From NCBI GenBank assembly GCA_051453625.1, contig JBOZIK010000001.1:35928984-35965392 (forward strand): a DNA stretch of 36,409 bases. Reading direction: 5' to 3'. Origin of the DNA: Welwitschia mirabilis (taxonomy: Eukaryota). Each line of letters starts with the position of its first letter. Within the stretch, counting starts at the first letter, position 1. Below are positions 2,029 through 29,833 of the stretch, piece by piece. A program made the translations under genes and the position numbers. Below the pieces are notes generated by a model. The model saw only the letters and a list, made by a program, of their open reading frames with translations, was not told where the DNA came from and searched no databases.

Positions 2029-2701
2029 TTCTGGTTCACTCCCATCTATATTAGTATGTCGTATCTATGCATATATTTGTGATTGACATGATTTGATAAA
2101 GGATGTAACATTTGCATAAATATGCATGGCAATAATAAGCTCCTTAATTTTTTGGGTATTGCACTATGTAGATGAAAAATTGATTATCAATGAGAAATAT
2201 TCCATTCGATAGAAAATTGAAATATAGTTCTTTGACACTTAGCTCATTAAGACAAAGATGATGTTCTTAAGAATATGATATATCCTAATGTCAACAATGA
2301 CTTTTTTGAGCTTCTAGAAAAGTGAAAATAATAATATGCCTTAAGATTAATAGAGAGTTCCTCTTATAGGTAATTCCTAAAATATTTTTAAATGTTGAAT
2401 ATCTTAGTACTCTTATTATAGCATTTAAGTGATTTACACTTATTACATGAAGATATTGTAATGGAACTTTAACAACATAAGAAATATCATGTTTATTATT
2501 GTTTAAATAAATTAGATTACTAATAATTCAATTAGGTTTTACTTCATTAGTTGATTTTAGATCTTCACTAATGGATAATTTTTTAGTTTGTTCTAGAGAA
2601 CTTACAACTTATTTAGTATTCTTCAAATGAAATTTCTAAGTTATATCTTAAATGTACTTATTTTAAGTTAAAAATATTTTATTATTTTTCAACATAACTT
2701 C

Positions 2702-3178
2702 TATATTATTTAAACTAAGTTTTATATTATTTAACCTAAGTTAGTTTTATATTATTTTTTAACCTAAGTTAGTTTTATATTATTTAAACTAAGTTAGTTT
2801 TTTATATTATTTAAACTAAGTTAGTTTTATATTATTTAAACTAAGTTTTATATTCTTTAAACTAAGTTAGTTTTATATTATTTAAACTAAGTTAGTTTTA
2901 TTTATTATTTAAACTAAGTTAGTTTTATATTATTTAAACTAAGTTAGTTTTTTATATTATTTAAACTAAGTTAGTTTTTTATATTATTTAAACTAAGTTA
3001 GTTTTATATTATTTAAACTAAGTTACTTTTTTATATTATTTAAACTAAGTTAGTTTTATATTATTTAAACTAAGTTAGTTTTTTATATATTTAAACTAAG
3101 ATTTATATTATTTAAACTAAGTTAGTTTTTTATATTATTTAAACTAAGTTAGTTTTTTATATTATTTAAACTAAGTTA
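2702..3178. repeat. Minisatellite A, ~26-28 bp unit TATATTATTTAAACTAAGTTAGTTTT(TT)
   Basis: Tandem units visible directly, varying mainly in T-run length. Each unit contains the inverted repeat AAACTAA-G-TTAGTTT. Runs into an N gap. Confidence 0.95.
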
Positions 3179-3278
3179 NNNNNNNNNNNNNNNNNNNNNN
3201 NNNNNNNNNNNNNNNNNNNNNNNNNNNNNNNNNNNNNNNNNNNNNNNNNNNNNNNNNNNNNNNNNNNNNNNNNNNNNN

Positions 3279-3603
3279 TAAAATTTATATTTTTTTTATA
3301 TTATTAAACTTTATAGTTTTTTTAATATTATTAAACTTTATAGTTTTTTTAATATTATTAAACTTTATATTATTAAACTTTATAGTTTTTTTATATTATT
3401 AAACTTTATAGTTTTTTTTGATATTATTAAACTTTATAGTTTTTTTTATATCATTAAAGTTTATAGTTTTTTTTAATATTATTAAACTTTATAGTTTTTT
3501 ATATTATTAAACTTTATAGTTTTTTTAATATTATTAAACTTTATAATTTTTTTATATTATTAAACTTTATATTTTTTTATATTATTAAACTTTATAGTTT
3601 TTT
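3279..3603. repeat. Minisatellite B, ~26-28 bp unit ATATTATTAAACTTTATAGTTTTTT(T)
   Basis: Tandem units visible directly, each with AAACT-TTAT-AGTTT. The last unit abuts the ribozyme module. A single unit recurs at ~5930-5956. Confidence 0.95.
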
Positions 3604-3637
3604 CTATATAAAGATGGGCCTTTAGACTGCTTAAAGC

Positions 3638-3676
3638 AGACCTTTTTGGGTTGCTTCGGCAGCCCTTTTGGGATCT
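3638..3676 (+). ncRNA. ENE-like stem-loop (U-rich internal loop, cUUCGg apical loop), copy 1
   Basis: AGACC-UUUUU-GGGUUGC-UUCG-GCAGCCC-UUUU-GGGAUCU. 7-bp upper stem with one G-U pair, U5/U4 internal loop, short lower stem. Confidence 0.5.
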
Positions 3677-3679
3677 CGA

Positions 3680-3721
3680 GGCACACTGATGACAGGTGAT
3701 TCCTAGAAAGCGCTCCGTGCC
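3680..3721 (+). ncRNA. Minimal type I hammerhead ribozyme, copy 1
   Basis: GGCACA-CUGAUGA-CAGG-UGAUU-CCUA-GAAA-GCGC-UC-CGUGCC. Complete core, stem I GGCAC/GUGCC, stem II AGG/CCU, palindromic AGCGCU stem III. Predicted cleavage after C3715. Two A-C mismatches next to the core. Confidence 0.8.
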
Positions 3722-4344
3722 ATTTGTATTGCTGCTCTGTAAGTTAATAGATTTTATGCAATACTTATGTTCCAATTGAATCTACTTTGCAGCTTTCTAA
3801 ATGAATCTGTCTTATAGTTTTTAAAGGCTATGTGTTTTCTAAGAACTTGTTTTTGAAGGCATTGAACTTCTTTCAAGTTTCTACCATTATTGTATACATA
3901 GCAATTTCTTTTTGGAAAAGCTTTTCGTGTTCCTGGAATTCTTAACGCCTGCTCCACCGAATGTTACTCTCATTTAACTTTGAAGAAACCCTGAACTCTA
4001 GAGCTTCTATTAGCTGGAGTTATGGCCTGCACTGCAAGCCAAGGCATAAATTAGCCATGATGAAAAGAAGCTAGCACCCGATTTCGAAGGATGGCTTTCC
4101 TCCATTTTCTCTCAGCTTTCTTGTGCAAAACGAACACGTTTGCTGTTGTTCTTGCTCCACCGTTTATACTAGGCAAATCTTCGCTTGACGATTTTCTCCG
4201 ATGGATTTTAGCTCTTATGGCCATCGCAAGTCTTTAGATTTTTCATTAGCAACTAAAGCCAGCAATCCAAAAACGCTACAGACATCTCAATCTGTCGCGT
4301 CTCTTCCTTTCAATGGAACAGTGAAGCGAATCGTATGCGCCACT

Positions 4345-4740
4345 CTAAAATGCATGCGACCACCAAAACCTCGCTTGTTCCAGGTCTCGTTTGATACCAC
4401 GCCATCCTTTTTCAACGCTTCTCGTCTGTGTGTCGATTCTGATGCTTCTTGACCACGCGTCGTCCTTCATGCACCTCGTGCCTCAAGCCTTTTTCCGGTG
4501 ATGCATACTTTTGTGTGCCTTTCACGCTGTGTCTATAGACGCCTCTATCATCCCTGTGGACGCGCTTCTCTAGCGTGTCCCTTCGTGCCCAAAGCCGCCG
4601 CTAGCTGCCTGGCTTTTGTGCATCTCCTCATTGGTTTTAGGCTCTTAGTCGGTTGCAGCCTCATTCACGCAGCAAGCTTCGGTGGCAGCTTCACTCAGGC
4701 AGTAAGCTTCGGTGGCAGCATTATTTTCGTAGCAATCTTC
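4345..4740 (-). pseudogene. Decayed ORF of unknown function with 3x10-aa repeat (EDCYENNAAT/EAYCLSEAAT/EACCVNEAAT)
   Basis: My translation gives a long frame broken by isolated stops. A 30-bp repeat at 4649-4740 preserves the frame. No family recognised. Confidence 0.35.
4649..4740. repeat. 30-bp tandem repeat, 3 copies
   Basis: TCGGT(T/G)GCAGC... units start at 4649, 4679 and 4709. Confidence 0.85.
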
Positions 4741-5123
4741 ACGTGCCACCGCACTTCACATGTTGCCACTACGCTCCTCATGTCGTCATCGACTCATTTT
4801 TTGCTGCGTCTGGATTCTCTGCCGCTAACTCTTTGGCTTCTCAGCTGTACTTGGCTTCTATGCCGCCAAATCGCGCCTTCTCTGCTGTCAATTCTTCTGA
4901 CACTGGTTAACACCAGCGTTTCTTGACGCCAACTGCCAGATTTATATCCTGACAGCAGCTGACCAGCACTTCACATTTCTTAGCGCTTCGCATTTCCAGC
5001 ATTTCACATTATCAGATTTCTCCATGGAGTCTCACTGCAGTCGTCTGATAACACGCATAAATCAAACTGCAGTCATCGAACCACAAAAAAGATCTGTCGG
5101 AAATCAATTCGCCTCCAAGCTGG

Positions 5124-5360
5124 TCATTATTTCTTTTAGCTGCACTTCCTCTAGTTTCTGACACTATCTGCCATGCCGCTGACAGCGTATGCCGGCCTCT
5201 GACCAGCGCAATCCATAGGACATGAGACACATCTATGAACTTCATTATTTCTTTTAGCTGCACTTCCTCCTGTTTCTGACAACGTCTGCCATGCCGCTGA
5301 TAGCATATGCCAGCCTCTGACCAGTGCAATCCACAGGACATAAGACACGTCTATGAACTT
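5124..5360. repeat. 118-bp tandem duplication, with a more diverged partial third copy at ~5467-5545
   Basis: TCATTATTTCTTTTAGCTGCACTTCCTC... starts at 5124 and again at 5242. Confidence 0.9.
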
Positions 5361-5752
5361 CCTTAAATTTAACTCTATGACACGCCTTATTTTCTCCATC
5401 GACTTTATTCTCTCCATTGGCTGCCTTAATTTTCTCCATCGGCTGCGTTTTGATTACCTACTAAAAACGTCTGCCATCTGCAACAGCATTTGCCAGCCTT
5501 ACATAGCACAGCACTGTGGACCCAATACGTCTTTGATACTTCATCTCCCCTCCAGCCGTCATCTCATTTTCAAATGTTAAGCTGTTTGGGGATGCATGTA
5601 TTCTTATGGAAAAAAGCTCACAAATTTAACTTTTGGCCTCTTCCTCTCTGTCGCAGCCGTTTTTCCGGTCACCCAATATTATTTGTCTTTGCTACAATGC
5701 TTCATTTCTGAAGTGGGACCCCTCTTGTTCTCATCCAAAACAGGAGGGCATT

Positions 5753-5770
5753 CCTAAACCCTAAACCCTA
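5753..5770 (+). repeat. Short plant telomeric tract or telo-box (CCTAAACCCTAAACCCTA)
   Basis: About 2.5 copies of the Arabidopsis-type C-strand repeat CCCTAAA. Confidence 0.7.
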
Positions 5771-5892
5771 TACTCTCTTTCTTAAGATCCCATGCTATCT
5801 TTTCACTTGGCAAAGACATATTTTTATTTGTTGGTGACTTGGATTGTATGGAGCATCTAAAATCATTGGAACATTTAGATCCCATGTGCTCA

Positions 5893-5923
5893 CTCCCATG
5901 CTTCCTCTCTTAAAGCATGGGAG
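5893..5923. other. Perfect 11-bp inverted repeat (hairpin)
   Basis: CTCCCATGCTT-9 nt-AAGCATGGGAG, ending just before the second ribozyme module. Confidence 0.8.
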
Positions 5924-5990
5924 AATGTTTTATATTATTAAAATTTATAGTTTTTTCTATATAAAGATGGGCCTTTAGACTACTTAAAGC

Positions 5991-6029
5991 AGACCTTTTT
6001 GGATTACTTCGGCAGCCCTTTTGGGATCT
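5991..6029 (+). ncRNA. ENE-like stem-loop, copy 2 (decayed)
   Basis: Same as 3638-3676, with G>A differences at 6003 and 6006 that weaken the upper stem. Confidence 0.4.
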
Positions 6030-6032
6030 CCA

Positions 6033-6074
6033 GGCATGCTGATGATGGGTGATTCCCAGAAAACGCTCCGTACC
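6033..6074 (+). ncRNA. Minimal type I hammerhead ribozyme, copy 2
   Basis: GGCAUG-CUGAUGA-UGGG-UGAUU-CCCA-GAAA-ACGC-UC-CGUACC. Intact core, perfect 4-bp stem II, stem I with one G-U pair and one mismatch. Predicted cleavage after C6068. Confidence 0.78.
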
Positions 6075-7079
6075 ATGTAACATGCAACCTGTTTTCAATG
6101 TAAGAAATCTATTTAGTGCATGTTGCTCTCTGTGTTTTATGAATCTGTTTTTTCAAGCTTTTAAGCTCTCAGCATTTTCAAGCTTTTCAGTTTCAAGCTC
6201 TGTAATTTCAATGTTTGAAAACCTACTGTTAAGTCTTTTGAAAAACTGTTTTAATTTTAATTTAGCCACCTCCACCGATGCAAGCTCCTTATCTACTTTT
6301 AAAGAAACCCTATATTTGAGCCTTTGCTAGCTAGAGTTCAGCTTGTATCTGCAAGCTTTGGCACCCTGGGCTCTAATTCGATGAAGCCAGTGATCTTATT
6401 TTCCTGGCTTTTCAAAACAATCCTTTCAGCCCATTATCTTCAAGCATAGTTTTTTTACTCATCGGCCCGCAATTTTCTGAGGCAACTCCTTGTGTACAAA
6501 AGCGGAGTCTTCACAGTAAACATAGGATCTATGTAATCTTAAATTATAAATNNNNNNNNNNNNNNNNNNNNNNNNNNNNNNNNNNNNNNNNNNNNNNNNN
6601 NNNNNNNNNNNNNNNNNNNNNNNNNNNNNNNNNNNNNNNNNNNNNNNNNNNNNNNNNNNNNNNNNNNNNNNNNNNNNNNNNNNNNNNNNNNNNNNNNNNN
6701 NNNNNNNNNNNNNNNNNNNNNNNNNNNNNNNNNNNNNNNNNNNNNNNNNNNNNNNNNNNNNNNNNNNNNNNNNNNNNNNNNNNNNNNNNNNNNNNNNNNN
6801 NNNNNNNNNNNNNNNNNNNNNNNNNNNNNNNNNNNNNNNNNNNNNNNNNNNNNNNNNNNNNNNNNNNNNNNNNNNNNNNNNNNNNNNNNNNNNNNNNNNN
6901 NNNNNNNNNNNNNNNNNNNNNNNNNNNNNNNNNNNNNNNNNNNNNNNNNNNNNNNNNNNNNNNNNNNNNNNNNNNNNNNNNNNNNNNNNNNNNNNNNNNN
7001 NNNNNNNNNNNNNNNNNNNNNNNNNNNNNNNNNNNNNNNNNNNAGTTACCTAAGCATTCCAATTATAATTTTACTCATG

Positions 7080-22063: not shown

Positions 22064-22871
22064 GTAAGTATTTAGGTTAAATTCCAGTGGCCGTTTTGCC
22101 TGCAATCTTAGTCACCACTTTGAGAGTATCTGAATCAATCTGATTTACGTTTTTGTCTCGTTTTCGAGTCTAATTTGTCCGTAGTTTTGATTTGCCGTTC
22201 CTTAGCTATTGTCTTTCTATTTTCGGTGTCTAATTTGATATGTATAAGTTTGCTATTTCCGGTCTAGAAGATTTTAGCAGGAAATGTGTAGCTTTTAGCT
22301 CCTCGGAAGCATGAAATAGAAAATAGACATAATTTAACGATCTTTATGAGCGTGAGCGTTGCACAGAATCCTTACGCATTTTTCTTTTCGTAGTTTATGT
22401 AAACTCCTTCTGTGCAAGCAAACAGTTATTCAGTTTTGTAAGATTTTTACGTACGTGTTGCCTCTCGCTCTTTCGGTTATTTTTAAGATACGATTTAGCA
22501 TAGAATGGAGAAGGAATCAGATGAAATGGAGAATTATGCCTGCGATCGCTGACTCTCATTTCAGCTTGCAGCCAAAGGGTTGCTAAGTATGAATCATATA
22601 ATCACAGTTAAGTTCACGTTCATTTTAATAATCCATTGGGGGAGGTACTGTTTTTGAGTATCGTAGGAACAAATGCCCTGTAAAGCAACCGCTTCACGTT
22701 AGAGATTTTTTCTTATCTGTTTTGCCATCTGTTTGTGTTTGAGCAAGACCTGTTTACTTAATTGTATGCTCTGTGGCATGCATTTGTGAAAAGAGGTTTC
22801 ATTATATCTTGCCGTTTACCTGTGTACCATATGAAATGATATTAATGATGGTGTTTTTCCATTTTATTCAG

Positions 22872-23431
22872 CTCCCAAGGATAGTGGATTCAGTAGATAC
22901 AGGATGGACAGATGAGATGCATTCTTTATATCTAAACACAATGGAAGCAACGTTTGCCAGGAAATTGTATGATAAGGAGTATTGTGCCATGGATTTGTGT
23001 GGACAGTCAGCTATTGAGCATGAGGATCAAGATCCAGAATCTGCAGAGTCGAAGCTTAGTTGTCCTTCACCTTTTGGGTTTAAGATTTGGCAGAAAGGAA
23101 ACTATCAGAGGTCACCAGATTTTAAGATGACTCAGAAAAAACCTCCAGTAACATTTTACAGAGCCCATGGGTGCAACATTTCAGAGGCCTTACAGACAAG
23201 TCTATAATGATTGAAGATGTAAAGCAATCTTCGATGTTTAAAACCCAAGCTGTTGACAACGCTGTAAAAAAAAACTCATTTGCAATTGAAGATCATGGAG
23301 TTTAGCCTTGTAGATTGCAATCAAATTATGATATCAATTATCGAAATATGGAGCTGGATCTTGTTGAAAAGAAGTGCACTTGGGCTGTAGCACACCCTGA
23401 AGGGAATGGTAATGATAAATCTTTGACAGAA
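22872..23431 (+). pseudogene. COR27: COR27/COR28-like (cold-regulated protein 27/28 family) coding region, disrupted
   Basis: Family motifs TGWTDEMHSLYLNTMEATFARKLY and FGFKIWQKG. After a frameshift near the A6 run at 23136-23141 comes ILQSPWVQHFR. In-frame TAG at 23303-23305. Homology to the downstream copy stops at 23431. Confidence 0.8.
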
Positions 23432-23594
23432 TCGTGTTTGCTCCGTAATCTGAAACAGCAATTCCATGAAGTCCCAAAGATGAACCCTCCGCCAGAGTCT
23501 TCAAAGAGCCAAAACAACGATGCCAGTGGTAATAAAGGACATGTTTATCATTACAAAGGGTAATAAAGGACATGTTTCACAATTCCTGTGTGAT

Positions 23595-23771
23595 CTTTAT
23601 GAATCACCTGGTTCTGCGGTAGCAATCCATAGTCGTAATGATGTGGCCACCCCCGGTCGGAACCAATGCCAGCATATTAGCTACGGTGGCATACATACCG
23701 GACGCCAGTAGTAACGTTGTCTCTGCTCCTTTCAAGGCGCTGATTTTATCTTCAGCAACTAGCGCAGTAGG
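23595..23771 (-). pseudogene. CGS1: Cystathionine gamma-synthase gene fragment
   Basis: My translation PTALVAEDKISALKGAETTLLLASGMYATVANMLALVPTGGGHIITTMDCYRRTR*FIK matches plant CGS (as recalled: NPTTVVLEDKISALEGAESTLVMASGM...LVPAGGHIVTTTDCYRKTRIF). Stop at 23606-23604. No flanking CGS sequence. Confidence 0.9.
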
Positions 23772-23879
23772 GATACTCCATTGAATTCTTGTTGGTGTTG
23801 AAAGCAGTCCAGATCAAATTGACGATCACATCTTTGCATTGTGCATCCGCCTTCAGCAGATATAGTTTCCAGGGAGAGG

Positions 23880-24160
23880 GGACGTATCAGAGCACAAACA
23901 GAGATAGCGAGCAGACGGTGAACCAAAATCACAACAAACAAGACCAAAACGAAAGCAAGTCACAGCGCTCTCACATCAGAAGCAAGAACGGCGCGTCACA
24001 GAGAGAACGCAGGGACGACCCAACGCCATCACAACGGCGCACAACAGTGAACGACGAACGGCGAGCAGGCAGACCACATCAGAACGCACGCAGGTCAAAC
24101 GCAGAAGGCAAGAACAGCACCGCACAGCAGCGCACGGTAGCAAAAGCACGCCATTAGACA
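23880..24160 (-). other. 5'-UTR-like, CpG-rich, pyrimidine-skewed segment oriented on the minus strand
   Basis: The + strand is strongly A-rich and T-poor, so the minus strand is T-rich like plant leaders. It lies upstream of the CGS fragment in the same orientation. Confidence 0.4.
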
Positions 24161-25617
24161 CCAGGTTCTATTGAAAATTTTCTTTGTATTATCTACAATC
24201 GGTTGTCATTGTAGAAACATTTTTTTCTGGGTTTTATTTTATAGTTTTTAAAATAAAATGTCTCCTTTTAATGTTAGCACATTAAAATAAAAACAGCAAA
24301 ACAATTCCTTATTTTGTACCTAAAATTTTCTTAGAAACTCGAATAGAATTTTCATACTTTACATTTCGGGAATTAAAATAAATACTCCTTTAAAAGATTT
24401 AGAGATATAGAGAATTTTAGATTTTTTTTTAAAGTAAAGTAATTAAAAAAAAATTTTCTTTTATCCTATTGTTATCGCATTCTCTCCCCTAGATTTTATT
24501 TTATATATAACCTTTCAAAGACCCTAACGTTGCGTCTTAGAAGGACTTTTGAACATATCTTGGTAATTTAATTCAAAGAGATTTGATTTTCAAAGTTAGT
24601 CTTTATTTTTCCAAGAGTATTTATAAATACCAGGAATTAAATTTTAATTCATCTTTTATCTTAACTCAATTGTATGCGTCTTAAATCCACATTAAATTTT
24701 GAAGAATTTTGAAATTCCCAAAAATGTCATCCATCTTAGTTAGAAGTGAATTGTATTAATGTATTAGTCAATGCTAATATTCATGTCAAGGGCTTAATAT
24801 TAAACAACATATAACATTGCATAAAAAATTGTCGTAATAATCATATGTGTGCCTTACAGTTTTATGAAATTTCTCAGTTGATACATTGAGCATTGTATAG
24901 TGAATATCTTCATTGAAAAATACTTTGCGATGAAATATGAAAATTTTAGTACATATTCTTTATAATTTTCTTGAGGAGCCTTATTGAGAAACTTGAATCT
25001 TTAGTTATGTAAATTACCTCGAAAATGCATTGAATGATAATTTGTGAATATAATTTACTTGAATTATTTTTGGTGGATAGGTATGAATTGGTAATTTATT
25101 TTCATGCATTAGTTGTAAATTTTTTTTGGAGATTAATAATTTATTTGTGAATATAAGATATTGGTAATATGCCTTAAATTTAATATTAATATCCATTTAT
25201 TAATAATGGAAATCTCAAGAAAAGGCCATGTGTTTCCCTCCTCCTCTTAAAATTTTTTAAAAACTAAGGCTTGATAAAGGGCATTAATAATTGTTTAAAT
25301 ACTATAAAATTTATATTTGTGAAGGGAATTAGTCAAAGGTCTAAACTTGGAAAATTTTAATAAAATTTAAATGGTTTGATGCACACAGTGTGACTTGAGC
25401 CACTGACCACTCGAATTACATTAACAGTGTTACAATTATATCATCAATTAATTAATGGTAATAAACTCATATGTTGAGCTGTGTTGCATAGATTTGATCA
25501 GCAGACCATGCACATGAAATGGGAACCGTTTAGCATTGTCAGACAAGGTGGTAATGTTTTTGGATAATTATAATTGAACGTATGCTTGGCTGAAGATTGA
25601 ACTAACATTCGAAAATG

Positions 25618-26218
25618 TTAGACAAGCTGGGCTGAACTGCATCCTGCGTGGAGGGAGGCCGACGCGTTCTTAAACGGATGCGTTATGAAATGGATTGCAT
25701 CCCCTTGCCTGCTCAGCCTGTCTCCTGCTGAATCCTGCCGCTGCTTGTTAGTTGAGGAAACCACACTGCTGGCTGGCTGCCTTGTCTGCAATCCAATGGC
25801 ACCTCTGGTGACCTCCCAAGGCCTGACCCGGCTCAAAAACCTTGAGGCATATCGAGCACTGATGGCCTAATTTGGTGCCCTCATTCTTGTCCTTTTTCTG
25901 GCTCTCATATCATCTCCATAGTCGTTGCCTTCATCATCATAATAATGAGATTCATAGTTTCCATGATTGAGCTTGCCAGAAAGCATGAGCAGCAAATTTG
26001 CAGTAGCTCTGTCATCGCCGACCATGGCGTTGGCCTCGGATGGGTGACCGAATTTCCGCTTTCTGCGATTTTTCAAGCTTCGGTTTCGAGTCACAGACCA
26101 GTTGTCAAAGAGAGGGCTCTTGGGCCTGGCCTCAACAGTGGCAATCAAGGGCACATGCCCGTTTCCAGTTGCAGTTGCAGCAGCAGTAGAGTCGGCTTTC
26201 GAGACGATGAAGGAGGAT
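25618..26218 (-). pseudogene. Q-type C2H2 zinc-finger (ZAT-like) gene, 3' part, frameshifted
   Basis: [24 protein letters not shown] at 25864-25793. Upstream L-box-like DDRATANLLLMLSG and basic RRKRK are in another frame. Frameshifts near 25895 and at a 4-bp GGCT duplication (25771-25778). No DLN EAR motif seen. 5' part lost in the N gap. Confidence 0.85.
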
Positions 26219-26318
26219 NNNNNNNNNNNNNNNNNNNNNNNNNNNNNNNNNNNNNNNNNNNNNNNNNNNNNNNNNNNNNNNNNNNNNNNNNNNNNNNNNN
26301 NNNNNNNNNNNNNNNNNN

Positions 26319-26922
26319 TATCGATTATCGAAATATGGAGCTGGATCTTGTTGAAAAGAAGTGCACTTGGGCTGTAGCACACCCTGGTACGCTCCTATAT
26401 TTTAACCAAAGGCAATCTGAATCTCTCTTCTTGAGAAATATCACTTTATTGCATCCTCATAGTCTTGTCCTCAATGCAGAAGGGAATGGTGATGATAAAT
26501 CTTTGACAGAAAAAGCGCTTGCCCAGAATCTATCAAGGTCCCATGACGTTTTTGAAGAAATTTCAAATAGAAAAAGGATAATAAAAAAGAGGAAAGCACA
26601 TCTTCGACTTCGCAGTAGTTCACCCAAGAATCAGGTATATGTTTTCATGGCAAGTGATGTCTCCTGCTAGTAATACACAGCTAAAAGTGTCTCAACTAAA
26701 CCTTGCATCTGACATAGGCTTTATATGTGGAAATTATTTCACCGTTTATCGAGGAAACAGAGTGCGAGAGAGGCAAGAGTTCCCAATTCCATCTGCGGAG
26801 TTGATTCCTCACATGGCTGTTTGCTGGATTCGAACAATTCTATCGATTGCTTTCATGAAACCAATGGAACTCATTTAGCAACTGCCAAGGGTAACAGACT
26901 CTCAGTGAAAGGTTTGTGGTAA
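26319..26922 (+). pseudogene. COR27: Intron-containing 3' part of the COR27/28-like gene (exons ..26386, 26480-26634, probably 26761-26922)
   Basis: Matches 23332-23431 with 2 mismatches but has a GT..CAG intron at 26387-26479. Continues EKALAQNL...SSSPKNQ to a donor GTATAT at 26635. A possible last exon SAREARVPN...KGLW* has a weak acceptor. Confidence 0.65.
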
Positions 26923-27672: not shown

Positions 27673-28104
27673 TGTCTAGAAAAGGGAATTAGAAGAAATA
27701 AGAACACAACATGATTTTATTATGGTTTAGCCCCTCTCTTGACCTCTATGACCCAGGTTCTTGTTATACAAGCAACAAATTAAAATGAAAAACAACATAG
27801 CAACATGTTTTCTCTCAAATATTAATCAAAGCTTGTCTCGAAATCAAAGGTCTTACTTTTTTACGCCTCTAGAATTGACCCACCAAATTAAAGTTTATGA
27901 AATGCCATAGATGTTAATAAATGCTGAAGATCACCTTTATTAATAGATGCTAAAAACACCAAATATCACGAAATTAACTCTCAATCAAATGGAAGTTAAT
28001 CACAATCCATTGAAATCCTGACAAATATCACCATTATATTCCAAACACATCTTGCAAGGGCAAGTATCTCTTATTAAAAGGATGCCCTTGTGTCATTCCT
28101 CCTG
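27673..28104 (-). mobile_element. Probable 3' LTR (27673-28095) with polypurine tract
   Basis: TG...CA termini at 27673 and 28095. Minus strand CAGGAGGAA directly precedes TGACAC. Marks the abrupt end of the genic island. Confidence 0.4.
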
Positions 28105-28949
28105 ACGTGGAAAGAAAAGTATAATTCTAAATCAAATTTTGGGATTTCATCTTCCATAAAAATTAACTCCTATTTTGTAATACACCTCTCTTGGACGTTA
28201 TATCCATTATAAAATTTAGCAAGAAACTCAAAATACTAATCTCTTTGAGTCTTTATTTCCCTAATGTTAAGCACATCAACCAAATTTCCTTATTATCTCT
28301 TATCTACTATAAACATAATATTTAAAATATTTCCATGATATGGGACAGATCCACAACAATTAAAAAACAAAGAATTGTCACCCTTAAATCTTTGATACTC
28401 TCCTGCTATCTGCATTAGCTGAAATCTTTTTGGTTATCTCCAATAGACCAACTTTTGTATGTTTCAATTCTAAATAAACCTGTTTTGGGGCTCTCTGGTT
28501 TACCGTGGCTAAATTAAAAGGATGCCCTTATGTCATTCCTTCCAACTTGGAAAGAAAATTGTTTGTTCTAAATCAAAATTTGGGATTTCGTTCTCCAAAA
28601 AAATAAACTCCTATTTTGTAATACACCTCTTATGGACGTTATCTTCATTATAAAATTTAACAAAAAAACTCACAATCCTAATCTCTTTGAGTCTTTGTTT
28701 CCCTGACATTAAGCACATCAACACAATATCCTCATTATCTGTTATCTACTATAACTATAATATCTCAAATACCTCCATGATATAAGGATAGATCTATAAT
28801 AATTATTAAAAAAAAATGGTCATCCTTAAATCTTTGATACTCTCACACCATGTGCATTAGTTGAAATCTCTTTAGTTATCTTTAATAGACTGACTTTTAA
28901 ATGTTTCAATTTTAAATAAACCTATTTTGGAGCTCTCTTATTTACCATG
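28073..28949 (-). repeat. 440-bp tandem duplication of a retrotransposon 3' end (PPT and LTR start duplicated)
   Basis: ATTAAAAGGATGCCCTT.TGTCATTCCT starts at 28073 and 28513, and the copies are collinear throughout. Minus-strand FQVGRND resembles the FQEGGND end of CRM-type Gypsy pol. Confidence 0.8.
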
Positions 28950-29833
28950 CCACATTACCAATATGAAATTTCTTACTTTACCTCTTGTCACTTATGCTAC
29001 TTTATATGTTTCATTGCTTTTCTTGCTGCTTAGCAACAATGCAAATCTATTATCTAACATGTATAATCATTTGCCAATGATGAAGGCTTCCCAACTTTAC
29101 AACAATATCATGTGTATGTGGTACAAAAACATAACATGTTTCAAATGGAGAATTCTTATGATTTTATTAACTACATTATTGTAAGCACACTTGGTATGCA
29201 CTAATTTCTTATTCCATTGTTTAGGATCTCCATCACATTAAAAACCAAATAAGCTTCCCAAGCTATAATATACAACCTATGCCCACTCATCTTNNNNNNN
29301 NNNNNNNNNNNNNNNNNNNNNNNNNNNNNNNNNNNNNNNNNNNNNNNNNNNNNNNNNNNNNNNNNNNNNNNNNNNNNNNNNNNNNNNNNNNNNNNNNNNN
29401 NNNNNNNNNNNNNNNNNNNNNNNNNNNNNNNNNNNNNNNNNNNNNNNNNNNNNNNNNNNNNNNNNNNNNNNNNNNNNNNNNNNNNNNNNNNNNNNNNNNN
29501 NNNNNNNNNNNNNNNNNNNNNNNNNNNNNNNNNNNNNNNNNNNNNNNNNNNNNNNNNNNNNNNNNNNNNNNNNNNNNNNNNNNNNNNNNNNTTGACAAAA
29601 TATACAAAGTTGCATGCAGAATCATCTTTTTCTCTTTGACAAACATAAGTTTTTTTCCTCTCTCTCTCTCTTTTTTTTTTGTTTTTAAAATTTTCATATC
29701 CCTTTCCATGTGAGGCCAATAATAATGTCTTTGTAGTAATTCATAAGTTTTTTTATTAGAGCCACGGTGCCCTCTTCAATCTCCCTAATGTTACTTCTAG
29801 ACAAGATTTAACTACAAGAGTCCACCTTGAACC

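Follow-up and report, generated by a model that had tools for sequence, protein, structure and literature searches.

Two worn hammerhead-like motifs of the dimer-dependent type I in direct repeats of the Welwitschia mirabilis genome, and a candidate high-copy family to which they may belong

Type I hammerhead ribozymes acting as dimers have been described in metazoans, with a helix I of 6 bp, a helix II of 4 bp and a helix III of a single bp carrying a 4-nt palindromic loop, and Penelope-like elements have related minimal forms within their flanking repeats, in some cases ∼3 kb apart (PMC4209133). Penelope-like elements of Selaginella carry canonical type I hammerheads (PMC4209133), and hammerheads also occur in some elements of Chara and spike-mosses (PMC8557442). 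Here we describe two co-oriented hammerhead-like motifs of the minimal type I in a 36,409-nt stretch of the genome of the gnetophyte Welwitschia mirabilis (assembly GCA_051453625.1, contig JBOZIK010000001.1, positions 35,928,984 to 35,965,392; hereafter the window, with coordinates counted from its first letter). The reading that we favour, with moderate confidence, is that both sites are decayed copies belonging to a non-coding, high-copy family built around a dimer-dependent type I hammerhead of the kind known from Penelope-like elements and retrozymes.

In plant genomes, few hammerheads of type I have been reported, with those of Selaginella linked to its Penelope-like elements; nearly all are of type III and are located in long terminal repeat (LTR) retrozymes (PMC4918200). 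These elements have self-folding type III hammerheads, LTRs of ∼350 bp, a tRNA-Met primer site and a total length of 600–1000 nt (PMC4918200). The non-LTR retrozymes of metazoans are tandem units of 150–400 nt (PMC7229834, PMC7761336, bioRxiv 10.64898/2026.07.22.740005), which have been proposed to derive from, and to depend on, Penelope-like elements (PMC7761336, bioRxiv 10.64898/2026.07.22.740005). In Athena, Coprina and Terminons, which are telomere-attaching Penelope-like elements lacking an endonuclease, the hammerhead is followed at once by reverse-complement telomere repeats (PMC6431247, PMC8557442), and 5′-truncated copies of such elements form head-to-tail arrays with captured DNA (PMC6431247).

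Both Welwitschia motifs are located on the + strand, at a spacing of 2353 nt. Motif 1 (3680–3721) reads GGCACA / CTGATGA / CAGG-TGATT-CCTA / GAAA / GCGC / TC / CGTGCC, and motif 2 (6033–6074) reads GGCATG / CTGATGA / TGGG-TGATT-CCCA / GAAA / ACGC / TC / CGTACC. Each is composed of the 6-nt 5′ strand of helix I, CTGATGA, a helix II hairpin of 4 + 5 + 4 nt and GAAA, followed by a 4-nt loop, TC and the 6-nt 3′ strand of helix I. Since it is helix I that is open, the motif is of type I. The initial annotation of this DNA had claimed a complete core at two co-oriented sites, and this was read directly in both copies: CUGANGA, GAA, the A15.1-U16.1 pair and H17 at the cut site are all present. The predicted cuts, at 3715/3716 and 6068/6069, enclose 2353 nt. 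The single-pair helix III (A-U) with its palindromic loop, GCGC, also pointed out earlier, is legible in copy 1, while the corresponding loop of motif 2 is ACGC and its palindrome is gone. The helix lengths match those given by Cervera and de la Pena 2014 (PMC4209133), in agreement with the earlier assignment to the minimal dimer-type architecture.

The helices proved to be less complete than first described. A descriptor of the motif found five of the six helix I pairs in either window copy, with an A.C beside the cut site in motif 1 and a C.A, plus one U-G pair, in motif 2. A perfect helix I is borne out as a guess at the ancestral form, since most other genomic copies have G at 3685 and G at 6072, but each window copy has one mismatch. 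A fully paired helix II is found in copy 2 (4 bp, with U-A at the basal position 10.1-11.1); in copy 1 a C.A mismatch occupies the base and is followed by three pairs, A-U, G-C and G-C.

The motifs form the 3′ ends of the two copies of a 149-nt direct repeat (3575–3723 and 5928–6076, both +), which are 91.9% identical and likewise spaced by 2353 nt. High identity ends in the alignment at 3723/6076, that is, 2 nt past helix I, exactly as had been noted before. The copies differ at 8 positions within the 48 nt of the motif part, 7 of these 8 being transitions, and at 4 positions within the upstream 101 nt, so that the hammerhead motif is the least conserved portion of the repeat. It is the most damaged part because it is CpG-rich and lies in a genome with long-term deamination (PMC8275611). 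For the window as a whole, the GC content is 30% and the observed/expected ratio of CpG is 0.44, and the stems of the motifs are GC-rich against this background. Both window motifs bear the damage of C-to-T type decay and have probably lost activity. Each repeat copy also contains a TATA-like TATATAAA (3605–3612 in copy 1 and 5958–5965 in copy 2). A separate feature of copy 1 is a 7-bp UUCG-capped hairpin at 3648–3665, 14 nt upstream of motif 1. Copy 2, in which the upstream hairpins are weakened by G-to-A changes, lacks two pairs of it, and loose ends of other genomic copies retain this hairpin via G-C/G-U and U-G/C-G changes.

With a small palindromic loop on a 1-bp helix III, a dimer is required. 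In the fold predictions, neither copy preferred the hammerhead fold as a monomer. The minimum-energy fold of the copy 1 homodimer was a double hammerhead (−24.7 kcal/mol, compared with 2 × −7.7 kcal/mol for the monomers), in which AGCGCU pairs with its counterpart over 6 bp, the two helix I duplexes form in trans with 5 bp each, and each strand folds its helix II hairpin. Copy 2, which carries AACGCU in place of the palindrome, did not take the hammerhead fold, either as a homodimer or in a heterodimer. According to the mechanism suggested by this architecture, a single copy could not fold alone; two RNAs would pair via AGCGCU into a 6-bp helix III, with their helix I strands swapped, and each RNA would then be cut after the C of GCGCUC. 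In intact members of the family, such cleavage might serve to process the transcripts, multimeric or tandem, of a retroelement relying on a reverse transcriptase made elsewhere, possibly by a Penelope-like element.

The distribution of the repeat in the Welwitschia genome was analyzed using Logan contigs of two DNA runs (X1 and X2) and raw reads of two RNA runs, aligned to 3590–6540. The k-mer depth was taken from short contigs and is not copy number. In both DNA runs the maximum of depth falls within the motif, and depth collapses over the rest of the repeat. The values (X1/X2) are 32/47 at 3678, 384/1654 at 3704, inside motif 1, and 5/20 at 3726; around the second copy they are 0/3.6 at 5982, 135/159 at 6072, inside motif 2, and 12.5/6.4 at 6077. 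Some contigs, including one of 1031 nt, match the window at 6020–6079 only, and the motif is therefore the part common to otherwise diverged copies. Of the RNA runs, X14 gave no aligned read out of ∼12.5 million and X17 yielded one read pair over 5966–6163, at 90–95% likeness; neither outcome speaks for or against expression.

At all four stem positions where the window copies mispair or deviate, the pairing letter dominates in the other copies. As a share of the total depth, G instead of A at 3685 accounts for 22 of 37 in X1 and 588 of 607 in X2, and G instead of A at 3694 for 220 of 233 and 608 of 639, respectively. The letter C replaces T at 3704 in 355 of 384 (X1) and 1633 of 1655 (X2), and G replaces A at 6072 in 133 of 136 and 153 of 159. 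With these letters, helix I is fully paired over 6 bp in the majority form, and helix II has three G-C pairs (GGG/CCC). Positions 3694 and 3704 are helix II partners, and copy 1 shows a two-sided change there, from G-C to A-U, in which both substitutions are deamination-type transitions. The ancestral stem II of CGGG/CCCG put forward in the initial annotation agrees with the majority 5′ strand, CGGG, but not with the majority 3′ strand, CCCA. No core position has a variant reaching 10% in the other copies, and the same holds for most non-core positions.

The expectation of such motifs by chance was estimated with patterns of increasing stringency. The bare core pattern gave 2 matches in the window, versus 0.26 expected. 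The full type I descriptor, a check recommended at the outset, recovered the two sites and nothing else in the window, and 9.2 Mb of Markov-simulated sequence gave no match. In 320 Mb of independent and identically distributed sequence with the composition of the window, it produced 8 relaxed matches and 1 strict match (with the palindromic loop). Chance matches per window amount to ∼0.0018 for the relaxed form and ∼0.0002 with the palindromic helix III loop; as the two copies are duplicates of one another, they were counted as one event. Metagenome contigs were also scanned with a 30-nt degenerate pattern spanning both copies, and 0 contigs matched.

The interval between the motifs does not look like a single element. 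Upstream of copy 1 lies an AT-rich minisatellite of at least 0.9 kb (2662–3600), with 25–27-nt units of two subtypes, of which 2662–3574 precedes copy 1 and which is broken by an N gap (3179–3278). It arises from the first 35 nt of the repeat module and its last unit enters the 5′ end of copy 1, where the minisatellite and the gap obscure the 5′ boundary of the repeat; at copy 2 there is one such unit only. Motif 1 is followed by an AT-rich stretch (3724–4050, +), moderately repeated in the genome, which is an old homologue (∼55–61%) of 6077–6363 (61% over 244 nt, E 1e-5). A GC-richer block comes next (4051–5750, +; 47% GC), which is low copy and has no long open reading frame (ORF) and no Pfam match. 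Its CpG observed/expected ratio of 0.87 is CpG-island-like, compared with 0.17–0.45 in the flanks, its + strand is strongly pyrimidine-rich, and it includes a 118-nt tandem duplication at 5124–5359. This block may be DNA captured between two repeat units. An organelle-derived insert was considered for it and ruled out, the depth of ∼5 being at the single-copy level. Next to this block, and 261 nt ahead of motif 2, a telomere-like tract (5752–5772, +) holds ∼2.4 copies of CCCTAAA, which is the plant telomere repeat in reverse complement. The stretch that follows copy 2 (6077–6551, +) is homologous to 3724–4050, represents the start of a second, diverged unit and ends at an N gap (6552–7043). 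In the whole 2353-nt interval there is no ORF exceeding 157 aa. A search for tRNA genes found none.

The homology between the regions that follow the two copies makes the locus look like a tandem of diverged units and not like one clean element. By its sequence it resembles two diverged tandem units with a module in common that is either young or homogenised; the first unit also contains a low-copy insert. In the favoured reading, the 2.35-kb interval is this tandem together with the insert, and not a defined mobile RNA.

Several observations weigh against membership in a high-copy hammerhead family. In a genome of several gigabases a single chance match would be nothing remarkable. The relaxed descriptor predicts ∼50 chance matches per Gb on both strands; with tens of chance matches per Gb, and two copies that are duplicates of one another, the motif alone proves little and its context must carry the case. 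Searches with the Rfam hammerhead families, another check recommended by the initial annotation, gave no match at the gathering score and none at E ≤ 10, either on 3 kb of the locus or in 71-nt stretches around each copy, the Rfam models being uncalibrated for variants with a 1-bp helix III. In the majority form, position 3693 remains C and position 3705 remains A, which leaves a C.A at position 10.1/11.1, the base of helix II. Natural hammerheads usually carry a G10.1-C11.1 pair there, and a C.A is unusual. No distal helix I or loop–loop contact was seen in the motifs, and variation within the family is too low for core and non-core positions to be compared. The apparent age of the two units changes sharply along them, from 92% identity within the module to ∼55–60% after it, and this fits no simple insertion model. 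A Pfam scan of 15 of the 22 ORFs of at least 50 aa lying wholly between the repeats revealed no reverse transcriptase or endonuclease, and among all 32 X-free ORFs of at least 75 aa in the window, 24 of them additional to those 15, none exceeded a Pfam curated cut-off. According to the excerpt of PMC10473749, which cites Lin 2016, Penelope-like elements are absent in gymnosperms other than conifers. Finally, the contig joints that suggest further units are weak leads, with sides of 20–47 nt, support from one or two contigs and depth below 7. Single contigs join the 3′ end of the motif straight to the CCCTAAA tract (3725>5754; depth 4.7, side 21 nt), other joints connect the tract to 5′-truncated modules (5772>6029 and 5763>3600), and units of ∼0.4–0.55 kb are hinted at by a joint of 6289 to 5752 across 16 intervening letters.

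The foremost alternative is that the hammerhead is a chance look-alike, that the 149-nt repeats are the termini of an ordinary non-autonomous element, of the LTR type or another, and that the abundance stems from its amplification. We regard this as possible but rather unlikely. Tens of chance descriptor matches per Gb would allow a motif to be picked up accidentally and then amplified, no Rfam hammerhead was matched, and the majority form has the C.A at the base of helix II. Non-autonomous LTR elements are plentiful in Welwitschia, with 10,589 copies (PMC8275611), and the repeats have some LTR-like signs: the TATA-like box, the TG (5926–5927) with which copy 2 begins after a purine-rich stretch, and the CA with which both copies end (3721–3722 and 6074–6075). 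In a test for primer site, polypurine tract and target duplication, the purine-rich stretch (5912–5925) was the sole LTR-like sign. A 12-mer of the tRNA-iMet primer site had no match at ≤3 mismatches near 3720–3745, and no site of this type was found after 3723; at this tolerance the query gave 18 matches compared with 19.25 expected. The depth profile speaks against a look-alike, since a peak on the ∼45-nt motif with a collapse in the rest of the repeat is unexpected for a neutral LTR. The palindromic helix III and the double hammerhead fold of the copy 1 dimer point the same way, as do GC-rich stems in a 30% GC window. Moreover, what follows copy 2 is not simple flanking DNA, given its homology to the stretch beyond copy 1.

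A live retrozyme at this very locus is far less probable. It would be transcribed from the TATA-like box, the transcript would be cut at 3715 and 6068, and the 2353-nt RNA released would, as the initial annotation proposed, be circularised or reverse-transcribed. Two co-oriented motifs do bracket a non-coding interval, and the 2353-nt RNA folds somewhat better than shuffled sequences, with a z of −2.74 that comes from 13 shuffles only, is inflated by the mixed GC content and is uninformative. Both motifs, however, deviate at helix positions from the majority letters. The palindrome is missing in copy 2, whose homodimer and heterodimer lack the hammerhead fold, and the dimer would have to form across 2.35 kb. 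The interior block is low copy, so this unit has not amplified. Release and circularisation of the 2353-nt RNA are unsupported. Its 1.7-kb core is low copy and CpG-rich, in contrast to the high-copy motif, both motifs are damaged, and no primer site was found, nor a reverse transcriptase in the ORFs scanned. Least credible of all is another small RNA, in which CUGAUGA would be box C of a C/D-box small nucleolar RNA-like or k-turn element with GGCAC/GUGCC as its closing stem: weak matches exist (snoU105B, 10.2 bits with a cut-off of 49; sR2, 8.9 bits; sR47, 7.2 bits), but all scores are far under the gathering cut-offs, no box D (CUGA) precedes the closing stem and the 42-nt unit is too short.

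Elsewhere in the window, a multi-exon gene was recognized at 22743–26670 (+), whose product has its match, a protein of 291 aa, in a Welwitschia mirabilis transcriptome (EukProt). This agrees with a plant host, most likely Welwitschia or a very close relative, hence a gnetophyte and no flowering plant. The exon at 22863–23207 shows 92% identity to this protein, the last exons are near-identical by eye, and no Pfam domain was found. The next relatives are ∼40% identical, one of them named Pinus taeda, and the nearest ESM Atlas clusters are hypothetical proteins of streptophytes, with weak recognition. A 68-nt stretch occurs twice at 99% identity (23332–23399 and 26319–26386) beside an N gap, and may be an assembly duplication. 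At 29596–29775 (−), also by an N gap, a fragment of Pfam Integrase_H2C2 (27.1 bits, E 4.6e-6) marks a relic of an LTR retrotransposon. The repeat table further lists a local duplication at 28073–28949, with ∼441-nt units at 83–89% identity, and stretches spaced by 746 nt at 504–1697, with 70–75% identity.

In seed plants, Penelope-like elements have been reported from conifers only in the excerpts of PMC10473749 and PMC9033089, and the former reports none in Welwitschia. A literature search gave no report linking hammerheads with Welwitschia or with gymnosperms, and no report from gnetophytes was found. A family of dimer-type hammerheads such as we favour would be of a kind already known, in gnetophytes, a lineage for which no earlier report was found. 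If real, a high-copy family of this type in a gnetophyte would bear on the timing of the entry of Penelope-like elements into seed plants and on whether gnetophytes share them with conifers, and it would offer a plant system for asking about the role of weak dimer ribozymes. The value of the window copies, which are worn, lies solely in pointing to the family. A bolder proposal, which we consider unlikely and advance as speculation, is that Welwitschia, and perhaps other gnetophytes, harbor a large and possibly still active family of this type, either as the plant equivalent of animal non-LTR retrozymes or as a tail module belonging to an undescribed Penelope-like element of the telomere-attaching kind. 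Intact copies of the family would cut themselves and make circular RNAs. Were this true, seed plants other than conifers, which are said to lack such elements, would have them in at least one lineage.

Among the known systems, the type I hammerheads of Penelope-like elements (PMC4209133) resemble the Welwitschia motifs in topology, in the 6-bp helix I, 4-bp helix II and 1-bp helix III, and in the small palindromic loop. Co-oriented flanking repeats 2–3 kb apart and many dispersed single motifs in the genome are further shared traits, and in Welwitschia the co-oriented repeats of 149 nt and 92% identity each carry the hammerhead at the 3′ end. They differ in that the Welwitschia motifs occur in a gnetophyte, helix II has a two-sided C.A at its base here and a one-sided bulge there, and the activity is a prediction in the present case. 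A telomerase-like reverse transcriptase ORF, with or without GIY-YIG, was not found between the Welwitschia repeats among the 15 of 22 ORFs scanned, so that this is not an autonomous Penelope-like element.

The telomere-attaching elements Athena, Coprina and Terminons share with one Welwitschia unit the presence of a hammerhead and a CCCTAAA tract on the same strand. The Welwitschia units are arranged head to tail with low-copy DNA between them, as in the arrays of these elements, and a weaker likeness is given by the contigs in which the motif directly precedes the tract, or the tract precedes 5′-truncated modules. In contrast to these elements, the Welwitschia tract is placed 261 nt upstream of motif 2, none follows either motif, and no reverse transcriptase was found in the ORFs scanned.

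The LTR retrozymes of plants (Cervera et al. 2016, PMC4918200) are likewise non-coding plant elements with a hammerhead in each direct repeat and a promoter-like box; this layout is shared, and a cut-and-circularise cycle has been proposed for them. The Welwitschia locus differs from them in its type I, dimer-type motif, its 149-nt repeat, its 2353-nt spacing and its lack of a primer site. Given the type I motif and the absence of a tRNA-Met primer site, it is not a plant LTR retrozyme. With the non-LTR retrozymes of metazoans, the Welwitschia units have in common a type I hammerhead, a weak helix III, a non-coding sequence and a tandem arrangement. They differ from these in forming a unit of 2353 nt in a plant, and the contig joints hint at units of ∼0.4–0.55 kb elsewhere in the genome.

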